From IMG/VR virus record IMGVR_UViG_3300042294_004068, positions 32,001 through 96,000 of that record: a stretch of DNA of 64,000 bases. One strand, written 5' to 3'. Position numbers and translations under genes: made by a program. Origin of the DNA: a virus. Positions 12,266-41,850 of this stretch are shown piece by piece; positions within the stretch are counted from its first letter, which is position 1; each line of letters begins with the position of its first letter. Below the pieces are notes generated by a model that was not told where the DNA came from, made no database searches, and saw only the letters and a list, made by a program, of their open reading frames with translations.

Positions 12266-15200
12266 ATGAGTTTTTCTCCTGACGTAAACACAAGAAATGT
12301 TGTGGGTCAGTACCTCAAGAGTTCTGGCTCCCCCGCTTCAGGAACAGTTACTTTCACAGCATCTAGCCGTATTGAGGACGCAAATGATGCAATTATTGTA
12401 TCTAGCCCAATTACAGCAACACTTGATAATACAGGCTCTTTCTCGGTTGAACTCCCTTGCACAGATGACCTAGACCTTAGCCCTCGTGGTTGGTATTGGA
12501 CTGCAAAGGTAAGAGTTTCAGGAAGACGAGCAACAGAATTTAGATTTTATCTGCCAGAAGGCGATGGCAGTGATGTCGAGGTTACAAAGCTAGATACGGT
12601 TGACCGTATCACTACTTCCCCAGCGGGCATTGACGTCCTTCGTGGACAAGTTGGTCCAGCTGGTCCTCAAGGTCCAACAGGCCCAGCGGGTCCCGCTGGT
12701 GGACCTACAGGTGCTGTAGGTAGTACAGGTCCGACAGGTGCAACTGGTGCAACAGGCTCCGTCGGTCCAACAGGTGCTACTGGTGCTACAGGTGCCGCAT
12801 CTACAGTCGCTGGTCCAACAGGTGCTACTGGTGCCACAGGTGCGACAGGACCACAAGGTGCAGCAAGTAACGTAACTGGTCCTACAGGTGCGACTGGACC
12901 TGCTGGTCAATTCGGTGGTGTAACAGTTGATTACACATTCTCAACAAATACAACAGATTCAGACCCAGGTTCTGGTCGAGTTAAATTTAACAATGTTGAT
13001 CTTGCAGCAGCGTCATACATGTTTATTGATGATGAGCAAGATGGTGCAATTGATGTTCAAAGTCTTTTAACAACAATGATGGCCTCAAACAGCGAGTTGA
13101 AGGGCCACATTCGAATTTCTCGTAAGGGAGATTCAAACTACTTTGCAATGCTTGCAGTTGACGGGTATACAGAAGACACAGGTTATTTCAAGGTAAACGT
13201 AACTTACCTAAGCGGTCTTGCAACTGCGTTCGATAATAACGACGATGTAATTATTACCTTCGCTCGTGTTGGTGATGTTGGTGCTCAGGGTCCTACAGGT
13301 CCTACAGGTGCGACAGGTGCTACTGGTGCAACTGGACCTCAAGGTGCAGCATCAAGTGTTGCTGGTCCTACAGGTGCTACAGGTGAAGTTGGTCCTACTG
13401 GCCCTACAGGTGCAACAGGTGCTGCAGGTTCTGATGGTGCTACAGGTGCCACTGGTGCGCAGGGTCCTACAGGTGTAAAGGGTGACCAAGGAGATGTTGG
13501 TCCGACAGGTGCTACAGGTGCGACAGGCGTAGGTGCGACTGGTGCTACAGGTGCCACAGGTGCGACAGGAGCAACGGGTGCGACAGGTGCTCAGGGTCTT
13601 CAAGGTATTCAAGGAGAGACTGGCCCTGCTGGTCCTACTGGTGCTACAGGCTCTCAAGGTCCAACGGGTGCAACTGGAGCGGCTTCAACTGTTGAAGGTC
13701 CTACAGGTCCTACTGGTGCGACAGGGCAGTTTGGTGGAGTCACACTTGACTACACATTTAGCAACAACACAGGTGACACAGACCCAGGTAGTGGAACTCT
13801 AAAGTTCAACAACGCTAACCTGACAAACGCTACTTTCTTATTTATTGACGATGAGTCTGATGGCGCTGTCGATATTCAAAATTATTTGCGAACAATTGAT
13901 GACTCAACAAGCACAATCAAGGGTCATATTCGCATTTCGCTAAAGGGCGATTCAAACAACTTTGCGTTCTACGCAATTACTGGTGCAAGCACTGAGGCAT
14001 CTGGATATTTCAAGATTCCAGTTTCACACCTTGATGGTCTTGCAACTTCATACTCAAATGGTGCAGATGTAATTGTTACATTTGCTCGTACTGGTGACAA
14101 AGGTGATACTGGTGCGACTGGTGCTACAGGTGCCACAGGTGCGACAGGAGCAACGGGTGCACAGGGAATTCAAGGAGAAACTGGTGCCACAGGTGCGGTT
14201 GGACCTACAGGTGCTCAAGGAAGCACAGGAGCAACGGGAGCAGCTGGACCAACTGGAGCTCAAGGAAATGTGGGCGCAACTGGACCTACTGGTGCCTCAG
14301 GAGCCACAGGAGGAGTAGGTGCCACTGGTGCAACAGGTGCCGTAGGTGCCACTGGTGCAACAGGTGATACTGGACCAACAGGTCCTCAGGGAGTTGCTGG
14401 TGCAACAGGTCCTCAGGGTGAGGCTGGAGCAACAGGTGCAACAGGTCCTCAGGGTCCTCAAGGAAATTTTGGTGGAGCATCATTTGACTACACCTTCACT
14501 GCTAATGCAACAGAAGCTGATCCAGGAATTGGAAAGCTTCGTTTTAACAATTTAGATATTCAAATTGCAACATATATGTTCATCGACGATGAGTCTGATG
14601 GTGCGATTGATATTCAGCAGTTCCTTCGTACTATTGATGATTCAACAAGTCCGATTAAAGGACATATGCGAATCAGCAACAAGACTGATTCTGCAGACTT
14701 TGCTCTTTTTGCAATTACAGGTTCAATTATTGAAAACTCTGGATATTTTACAGTTCCAGTTTCATATGTAAGCGGTCTTGCTACAGCATTTAGTAATAAC
14801 GAAGATGTAATTATTACTTTTGCTCGTACTGGCGATATGGGTCCACAAGGTATCCAAGGACCAACTGGACCAACAGGTGCAACTGGACCTTCAGTTACAG
14901 GTGCAACAGGTCCTACAGGTGCTGATAGCACCGTACCTGGTCCTACAGGTCCTCAAGGTGAAGCAGGACCAACTGGAGCTACTGGTGCAGCATCAACTGT
15001 GGAAGGACCAACTGGTCCAACTGGAGCGACAGGTCCTCAAGGTGAAGTAGGACCTACAGGTGCGACAGGTCCAACAGGAGCAGATAGCACAGTACCTGGT
15101 CCTACAGGTCCTCAAGGTGAGATTGGTGTAACTGGTCCTCAGGGTGAACAAGGTGTAACTGGTCCACAAGGTGAAGTAGGACCTACAGGTGCTACAGGTC

Positions 15201-40342: not shown

Positions 40343-41850
40343 TGAAATTTGTAGTCTGTGGTGGTGGAACAGCTGGATGGCTTACCGCTTTAACCATTCA
40401 CTCTAGTAATCCAAAGTTTCATGAAGTAGTGGTTATAGAATCACAAAAAATAGGAATTATTGGAGCTGGAGAGGCTACAAGCGGTTTTCTCTACGATGTA
40501 TTAGATGGCTCTACTTTATTTGGAAATAATCAAACAATGAACCCAAACAAAGTGGCTTTTGATTTTGCAGAGTTTGCTAAAAAAGTCGATGCTGTACCTA
40601 AGTACGCACTTAAACACATCAACTGGGCTAAAGACAAAGGCTCTTATTGGGCACCAATTAACGGCTCAGAAACTTCTAAGCGCTCTCCTGACCATCTATT
40701 TAATTATGTTGTAACAGAGTTTGGTCCTGAAAAAGCTTATCTATCTTCTGTATTAGGGCAGTCTTATGATCTAAATAAACTTCCGCCAGCGGGTGGAGGT
40801 TATGGGTTTCAGTTTGATGCCCATAAAGTAGCTAAATTTTTACGAGAGTATATAACTACAACCACAAAAACTACTCATATAGATTCAATTATCAAGGATG
40901 TTACTGTTACTAGCGATGGTCTAGTTGAAAGCGTAATTATCGAAGATGGTCAAGTCATTGAAGGAGATTTTTTCATTGACGCTACTGGATTTGTTAGATT
41001 GTTGGCAAACAAGGTCGGGATTGGGTGGACAGACTACAAAAACCAACTTCTTGTAGATAGAGCTATGCCTTTTATAGTTCCATACAAAGAAGAAGAAAAA
41101 GTACAACCTGTAACAGTTGCAGAAGCTCTTTCTTCTGGTTGGATGTGGCGAACTCCTACAGGAGGCCGCCGAGGTTGTGGGTATGTCTACAGCAGTGCGT
41201 TTATTTCTGAGGATGAAGCTCAAAAAGAAGCTGAAAAAATTATGGGGCACCCTATTGAGCCAATTAAGCATATTAAATATGAATCAGGCCGAGTGGACCA
41301 ATTTTGGAAAGGCAATGTTTTGGTAGTTGGCCTTGCAAGCTCTTTTATTGAACCTTTAGAGGCAACCAGTATTCATGCAACTATTATGCAAATTTTTAGT
41401 TTCTGTCAAGAGTATCTTTCAGATACAAAAGAAAAAACTTTAAACCCTGCTTCAATACAAAAATACAACGCTAAAACTGAAAAAATGTATGAGTATTATA
41501 AAGACTTCACGGTGTTCCACTATCAAGGTGGAAGAGAAGATTCCGAGTTTTGGAAAACTATTAAGTTCGACAAGATTACCTCTCCTGCTGTAGAAAACTA
41601 CATCGAGAGGTCAAAGAGTAGAATTCCTAGTGCTTTACATTTTATGGATTTTTGGGGTGTAGATTCTCTATGGAAGTGGACCTTAGCTGGTCTTGGGTAT
41701 GTTTCAAGAGAACAAGCAATGAGTGAGTTGAAACAATTTGATCAATTTGAATTTGCTCAAGCTCAATACAGAGCATTTAGAGAAGACATGAGAAAAATTC
41801 ATGAAAATAGTAGACCTTTTGAGATGAATCCCAAAGACTTTATTATTTAA
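40342..41850 (+). CDS. Flavin-dependent halogenase (tryptophan halogenase family)
   Basis: GGGTAGW, IGAGEAT, catalytic-Lys region AVPKYALKHINW, FQFDA, DFFIDATGF, GWMWRTP (WxWxIP-like), GYVYS, FIEPLEATSI. The GTG overlaps the GT stop. Confidence 0.9.
   Translation: MKFVVCGGGTAGWLTALTIHSSNPKFHEVVVIESQKIGIIGAGEATSGFLYDVLDGSTLFGNNQTMNPNKVAFDFAEFAKKVDAVPKYALKHINWAKDKGSYWAPINGSETSKRSPDHLFNYVVTEFGPEKAYLSSVLGQSYDLNKLPPAGGGYGFQFDAHKVAKFLREYITTTTKTTHIDSIIKDVTVTSDGLVESVIIEDGQVIEGDFFIDATGFVRLLANKVGIGWTDYKNQLLVDRAMPFIVPYKEEEKVQPVTVAEALSSGWMWRTPTGGRRGCGYVYSSAFISEDEAQKEAEKIMGHPIEPIKHIKYESGRVDQFWKGNVLVVGLASSFIEPLEATSIHATIMQIFSFCQEYLSDTKEKTLNPASIQKYNAKTEKMYEYYKDFTVFHYQGGREDSEFWKTIKFDKITSPAVENYIERSKSRIPSALHFMDFWGVDSLWKWTLAGLGYVSREQAMSELKQFDQFEFAQAQYRAFREDMRKIHENSRPFEMNPKDFII

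Follow-up and report, generated by a model that had tools for sequence, protein, structure and literature searches.

Why does a phage carry seven collagen-like genes in a single array with a glycosyltransferase (GT), and does one act on the other? The question is raised by a 64,000-nucleotide stretch (the window) comprising bases 32001-96000 of the 110,921-bp IMG/VR virus record IMGVR_UViG_3300042294_004068, for which CheckV estimates 83% completeness. Between positions 12239 and 41850 of the window, fifteen plus-strand genes form one co-directional array. Seven are collagen-like, and the last three encode a Methyltransf_24 methyltransferase, a GT2-type GT with tetratricopeptide repeats (TPR) and a Trp-halogenase-family flavoenzyme. 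We read this island as the host-recognition fiber cluster of a large freshwater actinophage, not as the exosporium-like virion coat that a first-pass annotation had envisaged. We propose that a GT resembling SgtA of C. difficile O-glycosylates threonines of the collagen stalks, and we put the probability of this as the whole explanation at about 0.6.

A collagen-rich gene array in an uncultured actinophage

The record belongs to an uncultured actinophage: it has a WhiB gene (Pfam) on the minus strand at 41843-42391, and its DNA polymerase shares 73% identity with the enzyme of 'Actinomycetia phage DSL-LC01', a genome assembled from a Dishui Lake metagenome, and 56% with the polymerases of large Microbacterium phages. 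DSL-LC01 carries the same island in synteny; its paper nowhere mentions collagen (PMC10611076). Intergenic gaps in the array measure 0-50 nt, save two of 94 and 227 nt. Interspersed with the collagen genes are five others, for a propeller-like repeat protein, an 894-amino-acid (aa) immunoglobulin-like (Ig)/glycine-rich protein, a 2034-aa giant protein, an S8 protease and a CBM_4_9 protein. Promoter-like and terminator scans of 10000-44500 gave matches at or below shuffled expectation; for promoter-like sites, the shuffled sequences clearly had more. The operon structure can therefore be read from the tight gene spacing only. The tail operon lies on the minus strand (tape measure at 58809-62555, minor tail proteins, and a fiber-like gene at 52892-54442), and replication genes stand between it and the island.

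The predicted genes confirm the layout described in the first-pass annotation, a co-oriented block apart from and opposite to a tail operon with a fiber of its own. Pfam matches and triplet counts likewise bear out the gene content it listed: seven collagens rich in Gly-Pro-Thr (GPT) and Gly-Ala-Thr (GAT), an S8 protease, and then the methyltransferase, GT2-TPR and halogenase genes. As observation, as distinct from interpretation, that annotation is correct in all particulars.

Counted in runs of at least four Gly-X-Y triplets, the seven collagen-like proteins contain 520 triplets, including 146 GPT (28%), 87 GAT (17%) and 50 GPQ (10%). Pro (47%) and Ala (25%) are frequent at X; Y is Thr in 53% of triplets and Pro in 2.3%. 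GPT is the commonest triplet in every one of the seven proteins, and Thr takes between 44% and 60% of Y positions per protein. Across the 110.9-kb record such runs are confined to these seven genes, plus one 18-residue run in an open reading frame (ORF) at 1457-5158. A whole-record search for the prolyl hydroxylase type 2OG-FeII_Oxy_3 was empty, and the earlier remark that the window shows no prolyl hydroxylase is upheld. Glycosylated Thr at Y can stabilize a collagen triple helix without hydroxyproline, which fits both the missing prolyl hydroxylase and the 2% Pro at Y.

An SgtA-like glycosyltransferase

The GT gene (39266-40342, plus strand) encodes a 358-aa protein with a GT-A (GT2) domain and TPRs, SgtA-like by description. 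Its Pfam matches above cut-off are Glycos_transf_2 (25.7 bits against a cut-off of 23.3) and, at residues 248-337, TPR_19 and TPR_2. D33, D83xD85 (D83-M-D85), H143-E144 and H165 are invariant across 39 homologues. An AlphaFold2 (AF2) model (pLDDT 94.3) comprises a GT-A domain and then a TPR-like helical domain at residues 176-351. Foldseek places it closest to two peptide glycosyltransferases, SunS and ThuS (E 1.6e-15, TM 0.64); the TPR domain of OGT and GmaR stand lower in the match lists. SunS and ThuS (PDB 7msn, 7msk) and the Listeria enzyme GmaR are laid out like the phage GT, with the GT-A domain first and behind it a helical TPR-like domain to hold a polypeptide acceptor. They differ in sequence (13-15% identity; GmaR, a flagellin O-linked N-acetylglucosamine (O-GlcNAc) transferase, is a weak sequence match) and in their acceptors, which are bacteriocin peptides or flagellin and not collagen repeats. 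The whole record yielded no second GT2, and no NCBIfam model matches the enzyme. Among 50,697 phage records, identity above 44% to the window GT occurs only in the metagenome-assembled DSL-LC01. In the window, the closest collagen gene ends 1.25 kb upstream of the GT.

The 358 residues of C. difficile SgtA comprise a GT-A domain (1-260) and four TPRs (262-358). The sgtA gene stands directly upstream of bclA3, which encodes a collagen-like exosporium protein with GPT repeats, and the recombinant enzyme transfers beta-O-GlcNAc from UDP-GlcNAc, with Mn2+, onto Thr, and also Ser, of GPT-repeat peptides (PMC7157674). Compared by this published description, the window GT is alike in length (358 aa), in domain order (GT-A, then TPR) and in its pairing with collagen genes. 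Its DxD motif fits the metal dependence of SgtA, and homologues with 41-47% identity to it adjoin GPT/GAT collagen genes in many Bacillota. The systems differ in their acceptors, a single spore-surface protein there and, as proposed, seven virion fibers here. They differ also in that a BclA-type C-terminal domain and membrane anchor are not seen in the phage proteins, and in that the phage GT clade is nearest to freshwater Actinomycetota, not Bacillota. Given the fit in length, domains and pairing, we propose that the phage GT is a Thr O-glycosyltransferase of collagen stalks. The BclA analogy drawn in the first-pass annotation holds at the level of this enzyme-substrate pair (SgtA/BclA3) and is not supported where it was extended to a coat.

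A GT2-TPR family accompanies Gly-X-Thr collagens across phyla

Co-occurrence was scored in IMG/VR searches anchored on each enzyme, with 10-kb flanks examined for collagen ORFs and homologues of window genes; loci are numbered with the prefix L. The GT-anchored phage loci were drawn from 80 of at least 533 IMG/VR contigs with a GT homologue, and a scan of one genome per prokaryotic species gave 65 bacterial loci with a GT homologue (34-58% identity). A collagen-like ORF lies in the flanks of 48 of these 65 (74%), within 100 bp in about 20. In 48/48 collagen-flanked loci the most frequent residue at X is Pro or Ala, and in 46/48 the most frequent at Y is Thr. The bacterial loci cover about seven phyla: Bacillota (Bacillus, Paenibacillus, Cohnella, Shouchella and many Clostridia included), Actinomycetota, Alphaproteobacteria, Planctomycetota, Bacteroidota, Verrucomicrobiota and Saccharimonadota. 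Those inspected are chromosomal, not prophage. Four of these genomes, when counted, hold 0-4 collagen genes each, so that about 1-6% of 21-kb stretches picked at random would be expected to include one. Outside the window lineage, the collagen background for the other anchors is 0/27 for the S8 protease and 2 of about 42 for the methyltransferase.

Phage contigs from outside the lineage show the same pairing. The distance between GT and collagen gene is 4-318 bp in L062, L211, L213, L215, L220 and L223, and 5-6 kb in L064-66 and L216; the collagens beside these GTs have Thr at 42-59% of Y positions. The contigs represent at least three other backbones: podovirus-like (portal, prohead protease), myovirus-like (sheath), and L062, where the GT sits between two collagen genes and beside a sugar-nucleotide gene cluster. 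The GT tree groups the phage enzymes in a single, well-supported clade that spans phage backbones and is nearest to freshwater Actinomycetota. The link between GT2-TPR genes and Gly-X-Thr collagens is real and strong; it is borne out by 48/65 bacterial loci and several unrelated phage backbones.

N-termini read along L062:2512-9968 are UDP-galactopyranose-mutase-like, cytidylyltransferase-like, cupin, methyltransferase-like and, in further ORFs, GT-like; from these sequences, the sugar-metabolism-like run suggests a more elaborate glycan at that locus. On the complete, streamlined 1.4-Mb chromosome of the freshwater acI actinobacterium SCGC AAA044-D11, L227:4498-11062 holds a GAT/GPT collagen gene of 935 aa together with sulfotransferase-like genes and a tandem pair of GT2-TPR paralogues (54% and 41% identity to the phage GT), with housekeeping genes on the flanks; about three more collagen genes lie elsewhere in this genome. 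The acI group is the likely host group, and phage fibers and host surface proteins may be chemically alike.

The collagen-stalk proteins resemble host-recognition fibers

The 233-aa collagen protein (18581-19282, plus strand) consists of an N-terminal 'IDFPxxPT...WxWDG' motif, a short collagen stalk and a C-terminal beta-sandwich head, and has 256 close metagenome homologues at 71-93% identity. In an AF2 model built from 30 homologues, the head blocks reach pLDDT 81-92. Foldseek gave zero matches to this model at E <= 0.001, and readable matches came only from the wider VIA-align comparison. This ranks the Det7 tailspike C-terminal domain first for the head (Z 9.4); behind it come reovirus sigma1/sigmaC, the receptor-binding protein (RBP) of Listeria phage PSA, and the adenovirus and lactococcal RBP heads. 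The 50 matches shown for this head, the one head modelled, include neither a BclA nor a C1q chain, an absence that is no proof. As modelled, the protein follows the plan of viral attachment fibers: an anchor motif, a thin stalk and a receptor-binding knob.

The other collagen-like proteins are likewise encoded on the plus strand. The largest, of 2106 aa (12239-18559), has 24 G-X-Y runs broken by repeated globular modules (Pfam Collagen 4.9e-73, 241 bits; GPT 61, GAT 58) and matches PHROG tail and tail fiber families at up to 3.6e-178. The 629-aa protein (19297-21186; Collagen 2.9e-26; PHROG tail fiber and tail collar N-terminus) and the 216-aa protein (22339-22989; Collagen 1.2e-13; PHROG tail fiber) share the N-terminal motif of the 233-aa fiber. 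The 797-aa protein (31900-34293; Collagen 1e-19) has a distinct C-terminal domain, and its residues 657-793 match phrog_677, 'baseplate wedge tail fiber protein connector'. The remaining two have 528 aa (35949-37535; Collagen 3e-11; PHROG tail fiber) and 153 aa (37555-38016; Collagen 23.5 bits), the short one with a C-terminal domain that matches phrog_18179 and phrog_8780 (minor tail and virion structural PHROGs). Pfam Collagen thus scores above cut-off in the genes starting at 12239, 19297, 22339, 31900 and 35949, and below it, with plain G-X-Y runs, in those at 18581 and 37555. As a set, the collagen proteins match PHROG tail fiber, tail collar and 'collagen like minor tail' families, and the fiber N-termini carry phage tail-collar/fiber motifs (phrog_3449). 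At the C-terminus of the 797-aa protein (33870-34293), we note a GHPF sequence and a Cys-x2-His-x2-Met-like loop.

The 2034-aa giant protein (25786-31890, plus strand), with an N-terminal glycine-rich domain, matches phrog_5838 (3.2e-142) and phrog_2885 (baseplate wedge). In tblastn searches, its residues 1218-2034 (~800 aa) are 37-40% identical to the 'virion structural protein' of S-PM2 (p175), Syn1, S-RSM4 and S-RIM44, and 51% identical to a DSL-LC01 product annotated 'ALK tyrosine kinase receptor'. T4-like cyanophages (S-PM2 p175-p177, Sf-FR1 genes 191-196) thus share giant proteins homologous to its C-terminal 800 aa. They also resemble the window in having an S8 protease within or beside the fiber cluster and, in some, a Trp-halogenase 2-3 kb off. 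The cyanophage clusters examined differ in lacking collagen repeats and an SgtA-like GT, and the window backbone is that of a siphovirus-type actinophage. Taken together, the receptor-binding head fold and the homology to cyanomyovirus virion proteins lead us to read the island as host-recognition fibers. A hypervariable island of cultured Nanopelagicales phages encodes a tail fiber and two collagen-like proteins and is taken to serve host recognition, and phages E7 and F5 of this group are like the window in placing collagen-like proteins in such an island (PMC10202952).

Protease, methyltransferase and halogenase do not travel as one system with the GT

The window lineage was recognised by syntenic WhiB, DNA polymerase and helicase genes and is represented by 28 loci with full flanks. 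Collagens, giant protein, methyltransferase and GT are each present in 28/28; the S8 protease is found in 20/28, and the halogenase and the carbohydrate-binding-module (CBM) protein in 16/28 each. The first-pass annotation had joined protease, methyltransferase and halogenase with the GT in one system. This does not hold, as the S8 protease and halogenase are missing from 8 and 12, respectively, of the 28 relatives that keep the collagens. The co-occurrence check it recommended was run: the GT tracks Gly-X-Thr collagens, and the S8 protease (0/27), the methyltransferase (2/~42) and the halogenase do not.

The 530-aa subtilisin-family (S8) serine protease (34306-35898, plus strand; Pfam Peptidase_S8 2.7e-30, 106 bits) has a complete catalytic set, D142 (IIDSG), H190 (HGTH), oxyanion N342 (AAGN) and S453 (GTSMA), and a crude hydrophobicity check found no obvious signal peptide. 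The phage genes most closely related to it come from cyanomyoviruses and carry the annotation subtilisin-like protease, virion structural protein or baseplate wedge subunit; in Sf-FR1 the S8 homologue abuts the p175 homologue. The 27 loci with S8 homologues outside the lineage (33-45% identity) have giant fiber-like ORFs around them and no collagen gene nearby, and we conclude that the protease goes with fiber clusters, not with collagen. One of these giant ORFs bears an N-terminal 'FPxSP...WxWNG' motif like that of the window fibers. This 'fiber-cluster subtilase' seems to be a recurrent, undescribed partner of aquatic phage fiber genes, and in the window it probably matures the fibers or acts from the virion. 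In cyanophage-like contigs (L083:9998-13278, L086, L088, L104), S8 homologues are consistently embedded between fiber-like ORFs of 800-2800 aa.

The 191-aa class I S-adenosylmethionine (SAM) methyltransferase (38681-39256, plus strand; Pfam Methyltransf_24 9.5e-13, 49 bits) always adjoins the GT in this lineage and recurs near it in L214, L225 and L251 among the GT-anchored loci. About 42 loci with homologues outside the lineage (40-51% identity) have a collagen gene near two of them and a GT homologue near none. The enzyme might conceivably modify the glycan.

The 502-aa flavin-dependent halogenase (40342-41850, plus strand; Trp_halogenase family, Pfam 2.6e-83, 281 bits, residues 2-458) has the motifs GGGTAG at 7, WMWRTP at 267 (Thr for Ile) and EPLE at 337, and a candidate catalytic Lys placed by eye in ALKH (residues 89-92). 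Its PDB relatives are RebH, Thal, PyrH, PrnA and VirX1 (E 1e-50 to 1e-37). Beyond the lineage, it is found in cyanophages and pelagiphages only. In six cyanomyovirus genomes (S-PM2, Syn1, S-RIM44, Sf-CH3 and Sf-FP1 among them) p175-type genes are 2-3 kb away, but in S-H38 and S-CREM1 about 40-60 kb separate it from the nearest fiber-cluster marker gene (S8), and none of the bacterial and non-lineage phage GT loci scored has a halogenase. Given that distance and that absence, we rejected the linkage of halogenase and fiber genes as evidence of fiber halogenation; the halogenase is an accessory gene.

At the island locus, the halogenase occurs in three divergent versions, with 80-100%, about 55% and 27-30% identity to that of the window (L040-L047, L196, L205; for example L045:8372-9985), the last sitting between methyltransferase and GT and not after the GT. 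Three versions at one spot may reflect a functional tie or else a hot spot of insertion; they suggest repeated acquisition at the site or rapid divergence.

A model for threonine glycosylation of phage fibers

We propose that the cluster encodes seven trimeric collagen-stalk fibers, two giant structural proteins with counterparts in T4-like cyanophages, and the fiber-cluster S8 protease. In the infected cell, the TPR domain of the GT would bind unfolded or folding Gly-Pro/Ala-Thr repeats. The GT-A domain, with its DxD-bound metal, would then glycosylate the Y-position Thr, taking the sugar from a UDP-sugar of the host, most likely UDP-GlcNAc. The glycosylated Thr would stabilize a triple helix that is free of hydroxyproline and may also shield the fibers from proteases or tune adhesion. 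We infer that the fibers are the acceptor from the linkage of their genes to the GT family, and by analogy with SgtA they are probably glycosylated on threonine.

Several points weigh against this proposal. The window GT was compared with SgtA by the published description, and the mechanism is proposed for this phage from sequence, gene neighborhood and modelled structure. Bacillota enzymes occupy a clade of the GT tree separate from that of the phages, so the sugar or acceptor specificity of the phage GT may differ. The complete linkage within the lineage reflects inherited synteny and amounts to a single observation. Outside it, L217-219, three of about 13 non-lineage phage GT loci, have no collagen in their flanks, and distant GT homologues (27-36% identity) in jumbo Pseudomonas and Erwinia phages do not lie beside collagen genes (PaBG was checked). 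The fibers themselves may sit on either the tail or the head.

A broader version of the proposal is a mobile 'fiber post-translational modification kit' of aquatic phages with several backbones. It would have an SgtA-like core, to which some lineages would add methyltransferase, S8 protease and halogenase for glycan methylation, maturation and Trp halogenation, and the fibers might imitate or engage the collagens of acI hosts. We offer this as speculation and think it improbable in its full extent.

Alternative explanations

The island enzymes could be auxiliary genes, unrelated to one another, that lie beside the fibers incidentally, at a boundary between two modules, with the GT acting on the host wall (superinfection exclusion) or on phage DNA, the methyltransferase on nucleic acid and the halogenase on a small molecule. 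A cell-wall or DNA role is indeed the usual published reading of freshwater actinophage GTs (PMC10202952, PMC10611076). Methyltransferase homologues stand alone at a similar junction in actinophages without a GT and, bar two, without collagen; phrog_2675, 'DNA methyltransferase', matches the window enzyme weakly; and halogenase and S8 protease are dispensable in relatives. We also know of no natural substrate for phage halogenases of the VirX1 type, which counts in the same direction. A module junction cannot, however, explain a 74% co-location of the GT with G-P/A-T collagens across phyla, and its recurrence across phage backbones. The GT is, moreover, soluble and TPR-bearing, and in structure it is like peptide glycosyltransferases and unlike the membrane-bound Gtr type or DNA glucosyltransferases. 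We consider the auxiliary-gene explanation unlikely.

The coat model of the first-pass annotation, in which an exosporium-like, possibly branched mesh of glycosylated collagen covers the capsid and is processed by the phage's own protease, GT, methyltransferase and halogenase as one system, draws on the position of the island, apart from the tail operon and on the opposite strand, and on the fiber-like gene that this operon already has. The GT-collagen pairing mirrors BclA3/SgtA, and the CBM protein comes near the cut-off of a 'phage head spike fiber domain'. Set against this, the Pfam BclA C-terminal domain (BclA_C) has no match at E <= 0.01 in the seven collagen proteins. The central GPT-rich region of the BclA family is present, and neither an N-terminal exosporium-targeting motif nor a sporulating host was found. 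The 233-aa fiber has a head like those of viral RBPs, the cyanomyovirus homologues are annotated as structural, baseplate or fiber proteins, the Nanopelagicales collagen island is read as host-recognition, and the four enzymes do not travel together. On this evidence the coat or mesh is not supported, and we regard it as quite improbable.

It is more improbable still that the collagen proteins act in lysogenic conversion, displayed on the surface of a lysogen to mimic host collagen-like glycoproteins and forming no part of the virion. A serine recombinase is encoded at 707-1390, DSL-LC01 is called lysogenic (PMC10611076), the acI chromosome described above bears a collagen gene of its own along with the tandem GT2-TPR pair, and collagen-like genes are reported from E. 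coli prophages (PMC3368898). The proteins themselves argue otherwise: a crude hydrophobicity check found no signal-peptide-like N-termini, and no LPXTG was seen on reading the translations, which is no formal test. Their N-terminal motifs and C-terminal domains match phage tail fiber families, and T4-like cyanophages, which are strictly lytic, have homologues annotated as virion proteins. Host-recognition fibers with collagen stalks probably modified by the GT remain our preferred reading.

Relation to known systems and implications

Collagen-like phage fibers, the SgtA/BclA3 pair and mycobacteriophage virion glycosylation are already known. In the literature searched, we found no paper tying an SgtA-like GT to phage collagen fibers and no report of a cross-phylum pairing of GT2-TPR genes with G-X-T collagens. 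Mimivirus encodes both collagen-like fibril proteins and a glycosylating enzyme, L230; it is a eukaryotic giant virus, and a hydroxylase-GT fusion produces its hydroxylysine-linked glucose. To our knowledge, neither collagen repeats nor a TPR-type GT feature in the mycobacteriophage work of Freeman and colleagues. That work, as far as it is summarized in a later paper, found mycobacteriophage virions to be glycosylated by phage-encoded GTs (Freeman et al. 2023, as cited in PMC12619734). These are likewise actinophages whose own GT decorates their own virion proteins, and they differ in that the glycans there, by the same summary, are on the C-termini of capsid and tail-tube subunits.

If our proposal is correct, phage receptor-binding proteins would join spore BclA as natural, Thr-O-glycosylated collagens that are free of hydroxyproline. 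Phage-encoded virion glycosylation would extend from the capsid and tail tube of mycobacteriophages to the host-recognition fibers of abundant freshwater phages, and a GT now guessed to be a DNA or cell-wall modifier in freshwater actinophage papers would acquire a concrete function. Perhaps the more durable result is that this GT2-TPR family marks Gly-Pro/Ala-Thr collagen genes across phyla, in Bacillota, Actinomycetota, Alphaproteobacteria and Planctomycetota as well as in phages. Our data suggest that SgtA-type collagen O-glycosylation is widespread and no clostridial curiosity.

Other genes and observations

Further structural genes of the island, all on the plus strand, complete the array. 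A 307-aa repeat protein (21188-22111), probably a BNR/Ycf48-type beta-propeller, has weak sub-cut-off Pfam matches to DUF6242/Kelch and a match to phrog_8700; its DSL-LC01 homologue is annotated 'photosystem II assembly factor'. The 894-aa structural protein (23084-25768) combines a He_PIG Ig domain (4.3e-10) with a glycine-rich C-terminal domain and matches phrog_5838, 'virion structural protein', and phrog_22713. The 221-aa CBM protein (37983-38648; Pfam CBM_4_9 1e-9) scores 33.6 bits, below the cut-off of 36, against the NCBIfam 'phage head spike fiber domain' (gene transfer agent (GTA) type), and this match is the sole hint of an island part that decorates the head.

Elsewhere in the window, the 1233-aa ORF at 1457-5158 has zero PHROG matches. 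The large terminase gene (5924-7345, plus strand) stands roughly 60 kb from the head-tail operon, which runs on the minus strand from 63734 onwards and past the window end. A scan of 300 Clostridia genomes found 12 GT homologues. One of them, at G060:C60:837-1835 in a Clostridia-class genome, is read through 13 in-frame TAG codons, which suggests that this contig, perhaps from a phage, reads TAG as a sense codon.

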